Below are positions 475-22,075 of a stretch of 24,000 bases of DNA, one piece after another. Within the stretch, counting starts at the first letter, position 1. Each line of letters begins with the position of its first letter. Under the pieces are notes generated by a model. That model did no database searches and was not told where the DNA came from. It saw only the letters and a list, made by a program, of their open reading frames with translations. This DNA is from Deltaproteobacteria bacterium CG03_land_8_20_14_0_80_45_14. GTDB lineage: Bacteria > Desulfobacterota > BSN033 > UBA1163. A program made the translations under genes and the position numbers. The stretch spans positions 225 through 24,224 of the forward strand of contig PEUO01000209.1 of NCBI GenBank assembly GCA_002780715.1. The letters run 5' to 3'.

Positions 475-1659
475 TTATTTGCCTAAGGCTTTTTTGGCAA
501 ATTCCTTTCCGAATTGAATCGCACTTTTCAATTCTTCCGGATCTGGAACAAATTGAACAGGAAATTCCTTCTCCCAAATTTCGAATTTCTCCTGCTCGAG
601 AGCCTTTCTCATCTCCTTGATCGCCCCTCCTCCCCAACCATGCGATCCAAAGAGGCCGAAGACCTTCCCTTTCGGTCTCAGCCCCTTCATATAGGTTAGG
701 AAGTCTCCCATCGTTGGAAACATTCCGTTGTTCAAAGTGGGTGAACCCAAAAGGATACCTTTTGCATCCAGCATCTCCTCGATGATGTCGCTCCGATGAT
801 TGGATCGCAGGTGAAGAAGTCTTGCTTCCACTCCCTCCTCAATCAAGCCTTTAAGGATAGCCTTGGCAATGCTTTCCGTACTCCCCCACATCGTATCGTA
901 GATGACAAGGAATTTATTCCTGGACTTTCCCTGGCTCCAATCCACGTAGGCCTGAATGATTCGGTTGGGATCCTTTCTCCAGATAAGACCATGGCTGGGT
1001 CCGATCATATCGATGGGAATCCCCATTTTCACCACTTCGTCCACTTTTTTCAAAATGAGCGGCGCCAAAGGCCAAAGGATATTGGCATAATATTTTGCCG
1101 CGTGTTTCATGATGACATCCCCCACCTCATCTTCAAATCTCTGGGAAGAAGCAAAATGCTGACCAAAGGCATCATTCGGCAAAAGGAGTTGATCTTCTTT
1201 AATATAGGTGAACATGCTATCCGGCCAGTGAAGCATGGGAGCCTCCACAAAGGTGAGGGTCCGATGACCGAGGGAAAATGCGTCTCCGCTCTTCACAATC
1301 TTAAATTTCAGCGATTTTTTATAATGTTTCATCAGACCCTTCTGACCCCTCTCAGAGGTGATCACGATAGGGTTTCCAATCCGTTCGACAATCTGAGTGA
1401 GGGAACCGGAGTGGTCCATCTCCACATGGTTCGAAACCACCACATCAATTTTTGACGGATCAATGATCTCTGAAATGCGCCCCAGCAACTCGAGGTAGAA
1501 CGGAGCCTTTACCGTATCCACCAGAACGTTCTTCTCGTCCAATATTAAATAAGCATTATAAGTTGTCCCATAAGGAGTGGAATAGCCGTGAAAATCTCTT
1601 ACATTCCAATCAATCGCTCCAACCCAATAAATCCCCTTCTTCAATTCTACTTTCTCCAT
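475..1659 (-). CDS. fprA: Flavodiiron protein (type A flavoprotein, O2/NO reductase; metallo-beta-lactamase-like plus flavodoxin domains)
   Basis: 394-aa ORF with the diiron ligand motif HVEMDHSG (HxExDH) in the N-terminal half and a flavodoxin-like C-terminal part (LVIYDTMWGSTE). Length and architecture are typical of FprA/ROO. Confidence 0.9.
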   Translation of the reverse strand: MEKVELKKGIYWVGAIDWNVRDFHGYSTPYGTTYNAYLILDEKNVLVDTVKAPFYLELLGRISEIIDPSKIDVVVSNHVEMDHSGSLTQIVERIGNPIVITSERGQKGLMKHYKKSLKFKIVKSGDAFSLGHRTLTFVEAPMLHWPDSMFTYIKEDQLLLPNDAFGQHFASSQRFEDEVGDVIMKHAAKYYANILWPLAPLILKKVDEVVKMGIPIDMIGPSHGLIWRKDPNRIIQAYVDWSQGKSRNKFLVIYDTMWGSTESIAKAILKGLIEEGVEARLLHLRSNHRSDIIEEMLDAKGILLGSPTLNNGMFPTMGDFLTYMKGLRPKGKVFGLFGSHGWGGGAIKEMRKALEQEKFEIWEKEFPVQFVPDPEELKSAIQFGKEFAKKALGK

Positions 1660-7919: not shown

Positions 7920-8267
7920 CTAACAGCAGCCTGTTTGGTTAGCGCCTTGAGAACATTCCGAACTATCACTTGATCCCACCTCCGAATCTACCGAGCAACA
8001 GCAAGAAGAGCTTTTTCGACCCAGCATGGTATTGATCACCGCAACTGCACAGCCCACCCCCGAACGCACATTGAGAGCTTCGGTAGGACAATTTCGGGCA
8101 CAGGCGCCACATTCCATACAGGCGTCTTTGTTCGCAATTTCAATCTTGCCGTTTGTTAGACTCAACACAGCATGGGGGCAGACCAATAGACATACACCAC
8201 AACCCACACACTTTTTCTGCTCAAGCTTTAAAGTGACGACATCTTTAAGATAGATCAAATGGTTCAT
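7920..8267 (-). CDS. hgcB: Mercury methylation ferredoxin-like protein HgcB (2x[4Fe-4S])
   Basis: 115 aa with two CxxCxxCxxxCP motifs (CVGCGVCLLVCP, CMECGACARNCP), the conserved internal Cys in SGVGCAVA, and a C-terminal vicinal Cys pair (..TGCC). The RBS GAGGAG overlaps the hgcA stop, and the gene starts 12 nt after hgcA. Confidence 0.92.
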   Translation of the reverse strand: MNHLIYLKDVVTLKLEQKKCVGCGVCLLVCPHAVLSLTNGKIEIANKDACMECGACARNCPTEALNVRSGVGCAVAVINTMLGRKSSSCCCSVDSEVGSSDSSECSQGANQTGCC

Positions 8268-8279
8268 AAATGTAACTCC

Positions 8280-9350
8280 TCATGCAATGTAATTTGACCC
8301 GAACCAGAGAATGAGGCCTACAATCCCCCCGACAATCTCCAGGGGTAATGCCCAACGCATTTCTTTTCTTACCCCTGAGAGAGAAGTGTAAGTCGATGCT
8401 CCTGTAAAATTCATCGCCAGATAAGCCGAGACCGCAGGGATAAGAAAAAACCAAGCCAGTATTTCCAGACGGCCTATCCCTGTGATCCAGTCATTCCAGA
8501 AAAAAGCCATGAGGATTGCAGTAAAAAGGAATCCAAGGCTAAGGCCTTTGATAAAAAAAGCCCGGCCGGGTAACCATGGCAACAATAAAGGTGCCAAAAC
8601 AGCACCAGCCAGAATAGCGGTCAGGAGTGATAGAGCCGAAAAATAGCCATGGTTCAAAGCATTCGTCCAACCTTCTCCTGACTTCCCAACATAAGATAAA
8701 AAGAAAAGGATAGGAATGACAATAATACCTACCTTTAGGGCTCCGACAAGTTCCATTGGGATGAGTTCTATTCGCTCCAAAGTCGTAAAGGTCTTGAGTC
8801 TCATCTCTGGTGTTGCCTTAAGCCCGCCCTCCAAGAAAGTCGGTAGATCTGTCGCCCGGATGGGGCCATATATAACTTTAAAGCCGGATAATTTCTTGAC
8901 ATGATGAGCCGCAACTCCTGGACCAGACAACTGGGGCAGAATCAATTCCCGATGTGAGACGATCTGGCTCAGGGCACTTGATTTGATTCGGCCAACGAGT
9001 TCCATCGTCCCGAAGGTCCCCTTACCCGAAGCACACCAGACATTAATGCCTTTGGTATCCAGAACCAGTATCCACATGTCCCGGCCTGGTAATGCCTCAC
9101 GCAGCTTGTCAAAGCTCATCTTGTAATTGGCAGTGACCAAGACCGGGGACTCCTCATCGGGCTTTCCTAATGCATAAAGACCGGGTTCGACGGTGTAATG
9201 CATGCGGCCTATCCCCCAACGGGCTCTATACCTCCCCAAACGATCTGCCCAAACCAGAGAGGATGAAACCTGAGGCACAGGACCAACGGGGGTCTGGATC
9301 GAACCAATAACAAAGGGCTGCTTTAAACTGGGAAGGCTCAACTGAGCCAC
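8280..9350 (-). CDS. hgcA: Mercury methylation corrinoid protein HgcA (conservative start; see the possible N-terminal extension to 9428)
   Basis: The cap-helix signature is GINVWCASGKGTFG; the family motif is N(V/I)WCA(A/G)GK. The corrinoid-binding N-terminal domain includes PFVIGSIQTPVGPVPQVSS..RMHYTVEPGLYALG and VLVTANYKMSFD. The C-terminal half has 4-5 TM helices. hgcB lies immediately downstream. The start codon is uncertain: GTG 9350, TTG 9341, or ATG 9428 via UGA recoding. Confidence 0.93.
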   Translation of the reverse strand: MAQLSLPSLKQPFVIGSIQTPVGPVPQVSSSLVWADRLGRYRARWGIGRMHYTVEPGLYALGKPDEESPVLVTANYKMSFDKLREALPGRDMWILVLDTKGINVWCASGKGTFGTMELVGRIKSSALSQIVSHRELILPQLSGPGVAAHHVKKLSGFKVIYGPIRATDLPTFLEGGLKATPEMRLKTFTTLERIELIPMELVGALKVGIIVIPILFFLSYVGKSGEGWTNALNHGYFSALSLLTAILAGAVLAPLLLPWLPGRAFFIKGLSLGFLFTAILMAFFWNDWITGIGRLEILAWFFLIPAVSAYLAMNFTGASTYTSLSGVRKEMRWALPLEIVGGIVGLILWFGSNYIA

Positions 9351-9353
9351 TCC
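9331..9353 (-). promoter_or_regulatory. SECIS-like hairpin (alternatively a hairpin masking the hgcA initiation region)
   Basis: The minus strand reads GGAG-U-GGCUC[AGUU]GAGCC-UUCC: nine pairs, one bulged U, and a tetraloop containing GU. The stem starts 9 nt after the in-frame UGA at 9365-9363. Confidence 0.4.
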
Positions 9354-9362
9354 ACCTTTGGG

Positions 9363-9428
9363 TCAACAGCTTGTAGGTTTAGAAAGGTCTTCCAGTTGTT
9401 CTAAGAGGTAATCTTTTGCTTCATCCAT
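9363..9428 (-). other. 21-codon ORF in frame with hgcA and separated from it only by TGA (leader peptide or Sec-recoded N-terminal extension)
   Basis: AGGAGAG lies 7 nt upstream of the ATG at 9428. The ORF reads MDEAKDYLLEQLEDLSKPTSC-TGA-PKGGVAQLSLPSLKQPFVIGS. The offset between 9428 and 9350 is 78 nt, so the frame is the same. Confidence 0.45.
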
Positions 9429-9468
9429 GAGAACTCTCCTATGTTGAAAAATTACATGATTGCCATTT

Positions 9469-9744
9469 TTAAGCGGCCATACCTTTCATCATTGGACCGA
9501 GAAAATCTTTCACGCGCTCTGCGAGATGTTCTGCCTTGATCAAATAGATACAGCAAACCTCCCCGCCTTTATCCCAACTGATAATAGCCAGCTTATCCCC
9601 TGCGCGGATATTTGCCCTATCTCTCAATTCTTTGGGAAGCACCATTTGTCCCCGTTCATCGACGCTGATGATCGATTCGACCTTGCAATAATTCATCCCC
9701 ATTTCCACAGGGGAACAGCAAACCTTCTGATTTTTTTTGGGCAT
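9469..9744 (-). CDS. AbrB/SpoVT-type looped-hinge-helix DNA-binding protein, first gene of the hgcAB operon
   Basis: GQMVLPKELRDRANIRAGDKLAIISW is the SpoVT-AbrB signature. I chose the ATG at 9744 as the start (GGGAGA 7 nt upstream) because the longer track ORF begins upstream of the predicted promoter. The protein contains two vicinal Cys pairs (KVCCSP, EVCCIY). Confidence 0.75.
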   Translation of the reverse strand: MPKKNQKVCCSPVEMGMNYCKVESIISVDERGQMVLPKELRDRANIRAGDKLAIISWDKGGEVCCIYLIKAEHLAERVKDFLGPMMKGMAA

Positions 9745-9809
9745 GGCATCGTCTCCCATCACAGGAATTTCTGATAATAAGATATATTCAGAATTATCAG
9801 TTACTGCTG

Positions 9810-9838
9810 ATATTAAACGAACAAAAAACATTTGTCAA
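9810..9838 (-). promoter_or_regulatory. Sigma-70 promoter of the AbrB-like/hgcA/hgcB operon
   Basis: The minus strand reads TTGACA (9838-9833), a 17-nt spacer, then TAATAT (9815-9810). It is followed by the palindrome CTGATAAT-N14-ATTATCAG (9800-9771) around the predicted transcription start. Confidence 0.6.
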
Positions 9839-13614: not shown

Positions 13615-13920
13615 TCATTTGATCATAACCCACCCAATGAAGGAGTTGGCTTTGGGGTCACATCTTCAGATGTCATTAATTTTAGTTAAAATATCTGATG
13701 GTAAAGGCTAATGCTAGCGGGTAGAAGCCGCCCGAGGTTGCATGATTGGCTGGATGATTCCTTTGATTCTTGAGAGATGCTCCAAAACGGATTTGAAGTT
13801 GGCAGAGAGGATGAAAGAATGCGCGCTCAAGGAGCCGTCTGGGAAACTCTCTAATTGACAACACCTTCGAAAAAGTAATAACTTTAGGATCATTTACAAA
13901 AGAAGGATTCAACTTGAATT

Positions 13921-17761: not shown

Positions 17762-18904
17762 ATGGCAATGAAGCGAAGATGGTTTATTATAGGCGTTTTG
17801 GTTCTGGGATTTTTCTTGCTCTTCAATGCATCTTCATCCCATGCCCAAAAATCGCACAAGACTCTCATTCTCCTCTATAGCAATAATATTAATGGCGAGA
17901 TTGAACCCTGTCCGACCTGAGATCAGAAGAATCGTCTTGGCGGTCTGGCCAGGAGAGGGGCGTGGGTGAAGGATTTACGGGAAAATGAAAAGGGGATACT
18001 CGTTTTAGATTCCGGCGATCTCCTTTTCAAAAAATATCTTAATCCCATTCCTGAAAATGGGTTAAAAGGAATGAGCGAGAAGGCCCATCTTATTGTCGAG
18101 AGTTTCAATCTGATGGGTTACGATGCCATAGGTATCGGGGATGATGATTTGAGCCTTGGAAAGGAATTCCTGTTGGAGATTTCAAAGAAAGCCAATTTCC
18201 CCTTCCTTTCTTCCAACCTCCTTGATGAGGCGTCGGGAAAAATTCTTTTTCAATCTTCTCTGATAAAGGAAATCAATGGTCTTCGAATTGGCATTTTTTG
18301 CCTTCTCTCGCCTGATTTCTTTCCAGGTCCTTCTGACCCCCGGAGAAAGGGATTGAACATGCGGTCACCGATCGAAACAGCCCAGGCCATGGTCAAAGAA
18401 CTTAAACCCAAAACCGATCTGATCATCCTCTTGAGCCATCTTGGCTATGTGAAAGATATCGAGTTGGCCCAGACCCTCCAAGGAATCAATATCATCGTGG
18501 GCGGCCATACCGGAATCAATCTCATCTATCCTCCTGTCATCAAAAACACCCCTATTCTTCAAACCGCCTCTCGGGGGATGTTTGGAGGAAGGCTTGACCT
18601 CATCCTCTATAACAACGAACTTATCTTTTACAATTCGGCAACCCAAATATCTTTGGAGAATAACCTCAACAGTATCAACCAGCGATTAAACTCTAAAGAA
18701 ACACCGGAGGCTGAAAAGGCTCAATGGCGAAAAGCCCAAGAAGAGACTGAACGAACCCTAAGCCAGCTCCGGGGTAAAAACGTATTCACCAATAACATCA
18801 TTCCACTGCAGGGTCAGATGAAAGAGCTTCCTGATATTAAAAAGATAGTCGAAGCTTATAAGGCGAAACCCCAGACAACAGAAAATCCTGTCTCTCCGAA
18901 ATGA
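17762..18904 (+). CDS. Secreted degenerate metallophosphoesterase/5'-nucleotidase-like protein, candidate selenoprotein (UGA at 17918-17920 in a CPTU motif)
   Basis: The ATG at 17762 (or 17768) opens MAMKRRWFIIGVLVLGFFLLFNASSSHAQ (a signal peptide), then KSHKTLILLYSNNINGEIEPCPT-TGA-DQKNRLGGLARRGAWV. This continues in frame (204 nt = 68 codons) into track ORF 17966-18904 (KDLRENEKGILVLDSGDLLF...). Calcineurin-fold motif I lies before the TGA and motifs II and III lie after it. Confidence 0.65.
17935..17954 (+). promoter_or_regulatory. SECIS-like hairpin downstream of the in-frame UGA
   Basis: UCUUGGC[GGUCUG]GCCAGGA is a 7-bp stem including one G-U pair. The loop starts with GGUC, 21 nt after the UGA. 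Confidence 0.45.
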
Positions 18905-20676
18905 CGAAGATGGCAAGCATTGATCTAATCCTTTTACATCCGCCAACCCTTTACGACTTCAGAAAACGGCCTGGGATTTACGGTCCGATCAGCGATGTCG
19001 TCCCCTCCACGCCTATCTTTGAAATGTATCCCATTGGATTTGCCAGCCTCTCAGAATATTTAGAGCGCCATGGTCTCAAAGTCAGGATCATCAATGTCGC
19101 CATGAAGATGCTCAAGGATGACAAATTTGATGTGGAGCGGCTTATTCAAAAAAATAAGCCCGTAGCCTTCGGCATCGATCTCCATTGGATGGCCCATGTC
19201 CAGGGAGCATTGGCTCTCGCAGAAATCATCAAACGGTTTCATCCCAAAATCCCCATCATCCTGGGTGGGCTTTCTGCCACCTATTACCATGAAGAGATTC
19301 TCCATCAATATCCTTTTATCGATTTTGTGATGAGAGGAGATTCTACAGAAAAACCTCTGCTTCAACTCCTCCAAACGATCAAAAAAGGGGGAGATTTTAA
19401 AAATATTCCTAACCTTACCTACCGGGATCGGAGGAACGGAATTCAGGCCAATCCCCTCACCCATGTACCGGAGAACCTTGACGAGATTACGATCGATTAT
19501 TGTCACATCATGAAGAAGGTGGTGAGGTATGTTGACCCCACGGGCTACCAGCCTTTTCTTGATTGGTATACCTATCCTGTGACAGCCGTCTTCACCTGCC
19601 GGGGATGTATTTATTCTTGTAAAACTTGCGGGGGTTCCGCACAGACCTTTCGAACGATGGCGAATCGGAGGAAACCAGCCTATCGGAATCCCAAATTATT
19701 GGCGCAGGATATCTTCAATATCTCAGATCACCTCCATGCGCCGGTGATGATCATCGGCGATATCTTTCAACCCGGAGAAGAATATGGTTTTACCTTTCTT
19801 CAGGAGATGAAGAGGAGGCCGATTACCAACCATATCGCCTTTGAATTTTTCGTTCCTCCTTCCAGAGCTCAACTAAAAAAAATTGCCGAGTCCATTTCGA
19901 ACTTCAATATCGAAATCTCTCCAGAGTCTCACGATGAAGAAGTCCGAAGGGCTTTCGGAAGGCCCTATAACAATGAATCGTTGGAAAGGATGCTTGGGGA
20001 TGCCATCGACCTCGGCTCGAAACGGATCGATCTGTTTTTCATGACTGGCCTTCCAAAACAAACCTATCGATCCGTACTGGAGACGGTGGATTATTGCCGT
20101 TCTCTATTGGAACGATTTCGTTCCTATCACAAACTCTTCCCCTTCATTTCTCCCCTGGCCCCTTTCTTGGATCCCGGGAGTATTGTCTTTGAAGCGCCAG
20201 AAAAATACGGATACCGTCTGCTTTATCGGACAATGGAGGAACACCGTCAGGCCTTATTGGCCCCCAGTTGGAAATATATCCTCAACTATGAAACGGAATG
20301 GATGAATCGGGATGAGATCGTCTTCAGCACTTATGAAGCTGGAAAGAGGCTCAATCGTCTGAAGGCCGAATTCGGTCTGATCGATCGAAAGACTGCAGAA
20401 TCGGTTGAGATGCGGCTTGACGGGGCAGTCCAGATGATGAAGGAGATCGACCGGATCATGGCCCTTCCAGATCCCAGAGAGAGAGCGCACGCCCTGGAGT
20501 CCGTTTCAAGTGGACGTCTCTCCCTCCAGCATTATAGCATGTCAACCATTTGTGAGAAAAAAGAACTGAAATGGCCCACTCGATTCATTCGAATGAACTT
20601 CGTCAAGATTCTTAAAACACTCCTGATGAGGAGGAAGCCCAATGTCTCTGTCCCTTCGTCAACAGGCGCTCCGTAA
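18901..20676 (+). CDS. B12-binding-domain radical SAM protein (class B)
   Basis: 591 aa. The N-terminal cobalamin-binding-like Rossmann segment reads VAFGIDLHWMAHVQGALALAEIIKRFHPKIPIILGGLSATYY. The radical SAM cluster motif CIYSCKTC (CxxxCxxC) sits within FTCRGCIYSCKTCGG. Its ATG overlaps the upstream stop (ATGA). Confidence 0.8.
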   Translation: MTKMASIDLILLHPPTLYDFRKRPGIYGPISDVVPSTPIFEMYPIGFASLSEYLERHGLKVRIINVAMKMLKDDKFDVERLIQKNKPVAFGIDLHWMAHVQGALALAEIIKRFHPKIPIILGGLSATYYHEEILHQYPFIDFVMRGDSTEKPLLQLLQTIKKGGDFKNIPNLTYRDRRNGIQANPLTHVPENLDEITIDYCHIMKKVVRYVDPTGYQPFLDWYTYPVTAVFTCRGCIYSCKTCGGSAQTFRTMANRRKPAYRNPKLLAQDIFNISDHLHAPVMIIGDIFQPGEEYGFTFLQEMKRRPITNHIAFEFFVPPSRAQLKKIAESISNFNIEISPESHDEEVRRAFGRPYNNESLERMLGDAIDLGSKRIDLFFMTGLPKQTYRSVLETVDYCRSLLERFRSYHKLFPFISPLAPFLDPGSIVFEAPEKYGYRLLYRTMEEHRQALLAPSWKYILNYETEWMNRDEIVFSTYEAGKRLNRLKAEFGLIDRKTAESVEMRLDGAVQMMKEIDRIMALPDPRERAHALESVSSGRLSLQHYSMSTICEKKELKWPTRFIRMNFVKILKTLLMRRKPNVSVPSSTGAP

Positions 20677-22075
20677 GATTCCCAGTGTAGATGAAATCCT
20701 TTCAAGGCCAGAGACCGTTGATCTCTTAAAGGTCCATCCCCGTAATGTCGTGGTCAAAGCCATCCGAAAGGGATTGGGACAACTGCGCGAAGAAATCCTC
20801 CATCACAAAGAACTTTCTCAATGGGGAGATGCCCTCTTCTCTTTCGAACACCTTTATCCTCTTTTCCAAAAAGAGATTGACCTTCAGATTCAACCCCGGC
20901 TCCGCCGAGTCATTAATGCAACCGGAGTGGTAATCCATACGAATTTGGGAAGATCTCCACTCCACCCTTCTGCGATTGAACACTTGATTGACGTCTCTAA
21001 AAGCTACTCCAACTTAGAATACGACATCGACCTGGGGGAGCGGGGAAGCCGATATACTCATGTCGAAGAAATCCTCTGTCGCCTCTCAGGCGCTGAATCA
21101 GCCTTGGTGGTCAATAATAATGCAGGGGCTGTTCTGCTTGCCTTGAATACTCTTGCAGAAGGCAAGGAGGTTATCGTTTCAAGGGGAGAATTGATCGAAA
21201 TCGGAGGAGCCTTTCGGATTCCAGATGTGATGAAGCGTAGTGGCGCCATTCTCAGGGAGGTCGGGACAACCAATCGCACTCACATCAGTGATTACCAGAA
21301 AGCAATCGGCCCGCAAACAGCCCTGCTTCTGAAGGTCCACACCAGCAATTTCAGAGTGATGGGGTTCACCTCCGAAGTCTCTCTCCAAGATTTAGTCCAA
21401 CTGGGAAGAGAACATCATTTCCCTGTTGTGGATGATTTAGGAAGCGGCTGTTTGGTAGACCTTAGCCTGTATGGATTAGAAAAAGAGCCTACCGTTCAAG
21501 AGACGATCAAAACTGGCGTGGGTGCGGTCACCTTTAGCGGCGATAAACTCCTTGGAGGTCCACAGGCCGGAATTATTTTGGGGAAGAAAACATTTTTGGA
21601 CCTCTTCAAGATCAATCCCCTGACCCGAGCCCTTCGCATCGATAAGCTCACCTTAGCCGCTCTTGAATCCACTCTTCTCCTTTACCTCGATGAGAAGAGA
21701 GCAATGGATGAGATTCCAACCCTCAGGATGTTGAGCCTGGATACGAGTAAATTAAAGAGGAGAGGAAGACGTCTGCTGAAAAAATTGCAAGGGATGATGA
21801 ACAAAAGGATGACATTCACTCTGAAAGAAGATGTCTCTCAGGTGGGCGGTGGAGCCCTTCCCCTTCAAGAACTTCCAACCATGGTGATCGCCATCAAACC
21901 TCTCGACTTTTCAGTAAACAGTCTCGAAGAAAATTTAAGGAAGGGGGACCCTCCCATCATTTCTCGAATCAGCAAAGAAGAATTGATCCTGGATATGAGA
22001 ACCGTCTTCGATGAAGAAATCCCTCTGTTGGTCGCTGGTCTTGAAAAGGCTCTGAAACATCTCCAGTCGCAATGA
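20642..22075 (+). CDS. selA: L-seryl-tRNA(Sec) selenium transferase
   Basis: 477 aa with an N-terminal LRKIPSVDEIL. The PLP-lysine block is FSGDKLLGGPQAGIILGKK, and NLEYDIDLGERGSRY is also present. These are typical SelA signatures. Confidence 0.9.
   Translation: MSLSLRQQALRKIPSVDEILSRPETVDLLKVHPRNVVVKAIRKGLGQLREEILHHKELSQWGDALFSFEHLYPLFQKEIDLQIQPRLRRVINATGVVIHTNLGRSPLHPSAIEHLIDVSKSYSNLEYDIDLGERGSRYTHVEEILCRLSGAESALVVNNNAGAVLLALNTLAEGKEVIVSRGELIEIGGAFRIPDVMKRSGAILREVGTTNRTHISDYQKAIGPQTALLLKVHTSNFRVMGFTSEVSLQDLVQLGREHHFPVVDDLGSGCLVDLSLYGLEKEPTVQETIKTGVGAVTFSGDKLLGGPQAGIILGKKTFLDLFKINPLTRALRIDKLTLAALESTLLLYLDEKRAMDEIPTLRMLSLDTSKLKRRGRRLLKKLQGMMNKRMTFTLKEDVSQVGGGALPLQELPTMVIAIKPLDFSVNSLEENLRKGDPPIISRISKEELILDMRTVFDEEIPLLVAGLEKALKHLQSQ

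Follow-up and report, generated by a model that had tools for sequence, protein, structure and literature searches.

The present analysis concerns a stretch of 24,000 nucleotides (nt) from Deltaproteobacteria bacterium CG03_land_8_20_14_0_80_45_14 (contig PEUO01000209.1, positions 225 to 24,224 of the forward strand). We refer to this whole stretch as the window and count positions from its first letter. The gene in question is hgcA on the minus strand. Its body is an open reading frame (ORF) of 356 amino acids, for which gene callers choose GTG 9350 as the start codon. The encoded protein is HgcA, the corrinoid protein of mercury methylation. It matches the NCBIfam model NF040863 with 458.3 bits (cutoff 275), a match that runs over profile positions 1–323 of 325 and covers the corrinoid and transmembrane domains; Pfam CdhD is matched as well.

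Ahead of this ORF lies a second, short one in the same frame. It opens with ATG 9428, which follows a Shine-Dalgarno sequence AGGAGAG (9434–9440) with a spacer of 5 nt, and consists of the 21 codons MDEAKDYLLEQLEDLSKPTSC (9366–9428, from ATG 9428–9426 to Cys21, TGT 9368–9366). It ends at a UGA codon (9363–9365). Beyond the UGA the frame continues as PKGGVAQLSLPSLKQPFVIGS..., meets no further stop and runs into the 356-residue ORF. The original prediction had described this ATG with its ribosome-binding site, the TGA and the frame continuing into HgcA, and each of these elements is found on the minus strand as described. Read through the UGA, hgcA spans positions 8280–9428 and has 382 codons plus a stop codon. 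The UGA is codon 22 in this numbering, the NF040863 match covers residues 51–379, and the cobalt-ligating cysteine of the cap helix is Cys132 (9035–9033). The cap helix reads NVWCASGK (family motif N(V/I)WCA(A/G)GK), with serine as the third-from-last residue in the window and in its close relatives. The purine tract ahead of the ATG (AGGAGA or GGAGAG) is also present in the close relatives L004, L005, L010 and L001/L003.

Relatives of HgcA offer a direct comparison for the codon at which the short ORF ends. A protein search with the read-through N-terminus, in which the U was written as C, returned 601 HgcA relatives. Their N-termini fall into two groups: either they carry an extension with a Cys-Cys pair or they “start” at MSLPSLKQPF. 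The homologue P0002, for example, reads TTSCCGQGGKTQLSLPSLNQPF where the window reads KPTSC-U-PKGGVAQLSLPSLKQPF, so that Cys-Cys stands where the window has Cys-UGA. The same holds for P0006, P0009, P0010, P0013, P0016, P0027 and P0033. The MSLPSLKQPF “start” of many database homologues corresponds to TTG 9341 of the window. Such starts are expected if gene callers were halted by an upstream TGA.

At the DNA level, we collected 80 hgcA loci, one per species-level genome and mostly from metagenome-assembled genomes of Thermodesulfobacteriota, the closest of which is 93% identical to the window. Together with the window this gives 81 loci, and each locus was read in frame through stops upstream of its HgcA match. 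TGA is found at the same aligned codon in 58 of the 81 loci (window included), and TAA or TAG in none. The aligned TGA lies 106–110 codons before the cap helix (107 in 52 loci), and no other stop precedes the HgcA body in any of the 58. An upstream in-frame ATG is present in 54 of these 58 loci; two have only a GTG and another two have no start-type codon (one of them is cut by a contig end). In 14 loci the extension even has exactly the same length of 21 codons, begins with MDE and ends in [ST]C-TGA. Hence, the expectation that the upstream ORF would be kept in frame among orthologues and would end only in TGA is borne out in 58 loci.

The residues around the TGA vary. The most common motif among the 58 loci is C-U (50 loci), followed by CGU or GUC in four (L011, L038, L077 and L080) and TU, in which no cysteine adjoins the putative selenocysteine (Sec), in another four (L046, L054, L059 and L069). 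Seven loci have Cys-Cys in place of the TGA site, encoded by TGC or TGT (L025, L030, L044, L051, L055, L072 and L076). Two loci have Cys-Arg, the arginine codon CGC being one base away from TGC (L034 and L062), and one locus has CDC. Cysteine-bearing extensions that align at the position of the TGA, which had been anticipated if the UGA stands for Sec, are thus present both among protein homologues and in seven of the loci. This variety at the N-terminal site suggests that a Sec site has repeatedly been gained, lost and converted among the relatives.

If the UGA is recoded, we would expect a selenocysteine insertion sequence (SECIS) next to it. The bacterial SECIS is a stem-loop just 3' of the UGA, and its apical loop carries a conserved G within some 16–37 nt of that codon. 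In the window the sequence GGAG-U-GGCUC[AGUU]GAGCC-UUCC (9331–9353, minus strand) could form such a hairpin, and folding, covariation and a covariance model all point to it. It is the minimum-free-energy fold of positions 9353–9331 (−11.7 kcal/mol, z = −3.25), and only one of 200 shuffled sequences folds as well. Its apical stem pairs 9348–9344 with 9339–9335 around the loop AGUU (9343–9340). The G of this loop (9342) is nt 24, counting the U of the UGA as 1, which falls within the bacterial range. The lower stem pairs GGAG (9353–9350) with UUCC (9334–9331) and leaves the U at 9349 bulged.

To see which parts of the hairpin are general, we aligned the 48 nt from the TGA onward in the 58 TGA loci. 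The RNAalifold consensus consists of a 5-bp stem and a 4-nt loop, and four of the five pairs show compensatory double changes. GGCUC/GAGCC is replaced by GGCCC/GGGCC, GACUC/GAGUC, AGCUC/GAGCU or GGUUC/GAACC. About 97% of the alignment cells at these five core pairs hold standard base pairs; in a version of the stem with seven pairs, 87% of the cells pair. Two bases do not vary at all, namely the closing C and the G in the loop (nt 24; 58/58 loci). The offset of the loop from the UGA is identical in 48 of the 58 loci, and the loop is AGUU or AGGU in 38. The covariation score is 0.300, compared with 0.200 ± 0.017 for shuffled alignments, of which none in 500 reaches the observed value; registers slid along the alignment score at most 0.137. 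The hairpin is missing from this position in all ten relatives that have a sense codon instead of the TGA, and the peptide encoded by the stem, AQ(L/V)(S/G), is likewise confined to TGA loci. Since both hairpin and peptide are restricted to TGA loci, conservation of the protein does not account for the structure.

We trained a covariance model on the 58 hairpins and applied it to the window and to the 23 held-out loci. In the window the hgcA site is the sole match below E = 0.1 (53.5 bits). Among the held-out loci the model recovered TGA and hairpin in three (L024, L043 and L068) that reading from the protein anchor had missed. Cys-type loci yielded one weak, partial match (L044, 5988–6030; 16.8 bits, E = 0.17), which covers model positions 15–48 and leaves the TGA end unmatched. 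L044 also keeps the peptide AVLSLP, and its SECIS-like match may be a relic of a recent conversion from Sec to Cys.

The original prediction likened the hairpin to the SECIS of the fdhF type from Escherichia coli, and this likeness stands in part. As in fdhF, a stem-loop within the coding region directly follows the UGA. Its apical part starts some 11–14 nt downstream of this codon, and the G of the loop, an essential feature of the fdhF type, is about 23–24 nt from the U. The apical 5-bp stem and the loop G are conserved with covariation and are specific to TGA loci. The bulged U 5' of the apical stem is a further similarity in this window, but together with the lower GGAG/UUCC stem it is lineage-specific, limited to the window and its nearest relatives. 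The sequences themselves are unrelated, and the loop is AGKU in the hgcA hairpins compared with GGUC in fdhF.

Recoding also requires a suitable host. The window was predicted to contain selA, and it does: positions 20642–22075 on the plus strand encode L-seryl-tRNA(Sec) selenium transferase (Pfam SelA, 9e-162; TIGR00474, 632 bits). A scan for tRNA genes found none in the window. We therefore turned to public assemblies, in which two proteins of the window were looked up; this led to contigs that are 99.7–99.98% identical to the window and extend past both of its ends. The gene for tRNA-Sec (anticodon TCA), which the original prediction proposed to look for as selC, is located 3.6 kb downstream of selA and about 1.7 kb past the window end. 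It occupies positions 13639–13732 of L081 (equivalent to about 25710–25803 of the window), with contigs L081–L083 being 99.9–99.98% identical to the window and the contig on which it was found 99.98%. The genes of this region lie on one strand in the order UshA-like gene, gene of a B12-binding radical SAM protein, selA, rluD-like gene and tRNA-Sec, and the first four are joined by overlapping stop and start codons. The radical SAM protein, encoded at 18901–20676 (plus strand) between the UshA-like gene and selA, belongs to the TIGR04190 family (666 bits).

The UshA-like gene (17762–18904, plus strand) was proposed to show the same pattern of an in-frame TGA as hgcA, and the pattern is there. 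The TGA lies at 17918–17920 within the motif EPCPT-U-DQ of a protein with a signal peptide. UshA-like proteins have counted among the known selenoprotein families since the work of Zhang and Gladyshev (2008). Against the family model NF041198 the protein scores 259.4 bits, just short of the cutoff of 275, with E = 5.7e-77 and profile positions 4–381 of 519 covered. The C-terminal third of the profile is missing from it, and public gene calls shorten the protein to 312 amino acids. It resembles the UshA-like selenoproteins (COG0737; NF041198) in being 5'-nucleotidase/metallophosphoesterase-like, in its signal peptide and in a putative N-terminal Sec close to a Cys; it differs in its C-x-x-U motif (CPTU), the motif listed for NF041198 being CxU. 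The UGA is followed by a plausible hairpin (stem UCUUGGC/GCCAGGA, loop GGUCUG), which is statistically not distinctive on its own. The covariance model derived from hgcA has no match at this UGA; it captures a consensus specific to hgcA and not SECIS elements in general. A tblastn search with the UshA-like protein gave no matches in the 80 hgcA loci.

Taken together, we think it very likely that the hgcA gene of the window is a selenoprotein gene, whose UGA is recoded as Sec and which places a Cys-Sec pair on an N-terminal arm of the enzyme. Translation would begin at ATG 9428 and not at the annotated GTG 9350. When the ribosome reaches the UGA, SelB carrying Sec-tRNA(Sec) would bind the apical loop of the hairpin, and insertion of Sec would yield an HgcA of 382 residues with vicinal Cys21 and Sec22, located some 20 residues N-terminal to the folded corrinoid domain. 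The recoding step taken by itself deserves slightly more confidence than the reading as a whole. It is supported by the conservation of TGA, frame and hairpin, by the alternation of Cys and Sec at the same site, by the presence of selA and tRNA-Sec, and by published precedent. Chance could hardly have preserved TGA, frame and hairpin together in dozens of genomes from different species. GTG 9350 (9350–9348, in the stem) and TTG 9341 (9341–9339, in the loop and closing pair), the gene-caller starts within 9339–9350 of the minus strand from which public calls derive a protein of 356 amino acids, are most likely not the true start of hgcA. Hence, the proposal of an N-terminal Cys-Sec pair encoded through UGA finds support in the conserved TGA, frame and hairpin, in the Cys homologues, and in selA and tRNA-Sec.

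What the pair does is a separate question. The Cys-Sec pair could be a high-affinity ligand site for Hg(II) or methylmercury on a flexible arm, which would pass the metal to or from the methyl-cobalamin site, much like the C-terminal Cys-Cys pair of HgcB. Judging from chemistry and from this analogy, we give such a role in metal handling about even chances. In the AlphaFold model of P0027, a homologue with a natural Cys-Cys pair, the corrinoid domain is confident (predicted local distance difference test, pLDDT, above 90 from about residue 31), and the first ~20 residues, including the CC pair, form a low-confidence coil (pLDDT of about 50). The low values in the arm of this model fit a flexible segment and prove nothing.

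Several observations speak against a selenoprotein HgcA or qualify the support for it. Our literature search found no experimental evidence of selenium in any HgcA. Neither selB nor selD is encoded within ~6–10 kb beyond either end of the window (about 40 kb covered in all). A scan of the whole window with Rfam 15, at E values up to 10, returned no SECIS and no other credible RNA family; this is weak evidence, as models of sequence and structure perform poorly on bacterial SECIS elements. In most loci a start-type codon with a purine tract upstream of it lies downstream of the UGA. The extension lacks both Cys and Sec in three loci (L045, L058 and L065; MFKKSAKEPF...PPGEE), from which it follows that the pair is dispensable to the HgcA family. 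Finally, the middle of the 21-codon extension is poorly conserved among the 14 loci that share its length, and the entropy at the three codon positions (19.5, 18.7 and 20.5) shows no excess at the third. We regard the last result as neutral, in that it provides no independent coding signal. The case for a coding extension then rests on the Cys-type homologues and on the fact that reading frame, length and terminal motifs are retained.

One could also argue that the 21-codon ORF is only a leader peptide that ends at the UGA, and that HgcA has a start of its own at GTG 9350 or TTG 9341, used either independently or through translational coupling, in which case no Sec would be involved. Gene callers do choose starts of this type. 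Moreover, the eighth codon after the UGA is TTG, GTG or ATG in 42 of the 52 loci with standard spacing, and in 30 of these 42 a Shine-Dalgarno-like 4-mer is found 5–15 nt upstream, compared with a background of 16%. However, this eighth codon straddles loop and stem, with two bases from the end of the loop and one from the start of the 3' arm, and the purine tract coincides with the 5' arm. The SECIS consensus explains the conservation of both without any initiation, and both would be buried in the hairpin. In 10 of the 52 loci, furthermore, there is no ATG, GTG or TTG in codons +1 to +12, and in nine of these ten the first possible start codon comes only at +18 to +54, level with the conserved QPF motif or past it, so that starting there would delete conserved residues. 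A leader peptide also gives no account of a stop codon that is always TGA and never TAA or TAG, of Cys-type homologues that translate through the aligned position, or of a hairpin that vanishes exactly where a sense codon replaces the TGA. We consider a leader peptide without Sec to be very unlikely.

Slightly less improbable, and still a long shot, is an arrangement in which both readings of the mRNA are used and selenium supply decides between them. When Sec-tRNA(Sec) is available, full-length HgcA with the Cys-Sec pair would be made; when selenium is scarce, ribosomes would terminate at the UGA, re-initiate 24 nt downstream at the TTG or GTG of the loop and produce HgcA without the arm. The start-type eighth codon with its Shine-Dalgarno-like tract in 30 of the 52 loci would suit such a scheme, and so would the relatives without Cys or Sec in the extension, which suggest that arm-less HgcA can function. 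Yet the start and Shine-Dalgarno signals are fully confounded with the SECIS consensus and are absent in at least 10 of the 52 loci. If the arrangement did exist, selenium supply would bear directly on the way in which methylmercury is produced and perhaps on how fast, and the arm-less enzyme might handle mercury differently. The least probable account, to which we assign almost no weight, is that the TGA arose by an error in sequencing or assembly or by a mutation that turned hgcA into a pseudogene, with a hairpin that is due to chance or resembles a terminator. Nothing more specific favors it than the origin of the window from metagenome assemblies. The identical TGA occurs in independent assemblies of the same organism (99.7–99.98% identity) and in at least 58 species-level genomes, the hairpin has no trailing U-run, and the frame downstream is intact. 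We rejected a pseudogene or assembly error on the grounds that the same TGA recurs in independent assemblies and in many species.

The genes next to hgcA are those one would expect at a mercury methylation locus. The ferredoxin gene hgcB (7920–8267, minus strand; NF040864, 118 bits, cutoff 99) lies 12 nt downstream of hgcA. Its product ends in ...GCC, that is, in a C-terminal Cys-Cys pair, and it has a cysteine (RSGVGCAV) at a site for which Sec (GVGU) is reported in roughly 6% of HgcB proteins (Haft and Gwadz, bioRxiv 10.1101/2022.07.06.499078). With Cys at the GVGC site of HgcB, only HgcA of the HgcAB pair would be a selenoprotein in this organism. On the other side of hgcA lies hgcC (9469–9744, minus strand), which encodes an HgcAB-associated AbrB-like protein (NF040962, 126 bits, cutoff 70) beginning with MPKKNQK at ATG 9744. 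This start is conserved, and the ORF call of 120 amino acids (9469–9831, minus strand) is probably 29 codons too long. HgcC is rich in cysteine (MPKKNQKVCCSPVEMGMNYCKVES...GEVCCIYLIK; CC...C...CC), and the pattern is kept in 20 orthologues. We also checked whether HgcC might be a selenoprotein, and a TGA was found in none of the 20 aligned orthologues. HgcC could be a metal-responsive regulator of hgcAB.

Far from hgcA, the window contains a GC-rich, near-perfect inverted repeat at 374–438, present on both strands (CCCUCACCUUCUCCUCUCCCCC...GGGGGAGGGUAGGGUGAGGG). It produced spurious sub-threshold Rfam matches to Pab91, mir-8791 and Antizyme_FSE. The repeat is probably a terminator-like hairpin because it is located just downstream of a flavodiiron-like gene (475–1659, minus strand).

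The Cys-Sec pair could also matter for mercury methylation. HgcA makes methylmercury, and both the toxicology and the biogeochemistry of mercury have long dealt with its antagonism with selenium. Should HgcA carry a selenolate beside a thiolate, the availability of selenium may affect the amount of the enzyme or its acquisition of Hg(II). There would also be practical consequences. Standard gene calls appear to start HgcA too late, at the locus in the window and in many database entries, and recombinant constructs, structural models and hgcA marker databases based on such calls would omit the Cys-Sec arm. The SECIS consensus could serve the re-annotation of hgcA in metagenomes.

The original prediction knew of no description of a selenoprotein HgcA. 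In this it was wrong: Haft and Gwadz described the feature, a 2024 PNAS study cites their work, and a 2026 review tabulates it. A selenoprotein HgcA was thus already published in 2022–2023, and the locus in the window is one more example. Haft and Gwadz reported that HgcA is in most cases a selenoprotein, whose CU motif lies ahead of the start that had been predicted (bioRxiv 10.1101/2022.07.06.499078; J Bacteriol 2023, 205:e00259-22). Their set comprises the founding HgcA proteins, from Pseudodesulfovibrio mercurii ND132 and Geobacter sulfurreducens PCA, and 18 others, all from species that encode Sec machinery (bioRxiv 10.1101/2022.07.06.499078). In the 2024 PNAS study of purified HgcAB, the published version (J Bacteriol 2023, 205:e00259-22) is cited for no more than a suggestion drawn from “sequence and codon analyses.” The 2026 review of prokaryotic selenoproteomes lists HgcA (NF040863, CU), HgcB (NF040864, GVGU) and UshA-like proteins (NF041198, CxU), and it names Zhang and Gladyshev (2008) as a further source for HgcA. 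The terms “corrinoid” and “acetyl-CoA synthase” are both absent from the main text of that paper, and hence we credit it for the UshA-like family only and not for HgcA.

Cys-Sec or Cys-Cys pairs of adjacent residues, placed on a terminal segment, are also known from other proteins that handle soft metals, namely SaoL, SaoB and SaoC of the SAO locus, CU proteins of the MerT family, and the C-terminus of HgcB. Haft and Gwadz drew the parallel between these proteins and the CU motif of HgcA explicitly, and the idea that the pair is a metal ligand is the same as the one they put forward (bioRxiv 10.1101/2022.07.06.499078). These proteins belong to other families and have other folds, and for HgcA a comparable role in metal handling would follow by analogy.

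The closest comparison is with the HgcA proteins of Haft and Gwadz themselves. The window shares with them just one in-frame UGA ahead of the annotated start, a short extension initiated at ATG, a putative CU dipeptide, Cys-Cys in homologues that are not selenoproteins, and shortened gene calls in the databases. The residues around the pair differ. Haft and Gwadz reported PCUGP as perfectly conserved in 20 sequences (bioRxiv 10.1101/2022.07.06.499078), whereas the window has SCUPK, its relatives mostly have SCUP[QSPK], and PCUGP occurs in one of our 58 loci; some relatives have TU, CGU or GUC instead. PCUGP seems to characterize the sequences sampled in that study, not the family at large, and its absence is no bar to membership. 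The other difference concerns the RNA. The preprint gives no SECIS for hgcA, manual checks having been made and a prediction server having failed (bioRxiv 10.1101/2022.07.06.499078), whereas the hairpin defined here covaries and is specific to loci with the putative Sec codon. A covarying, Sec-specific putative SECIS for this clade of hgcA, which is well supported by the alignments, and the SCUP context in place of PCUGP are small additions to a known feature.

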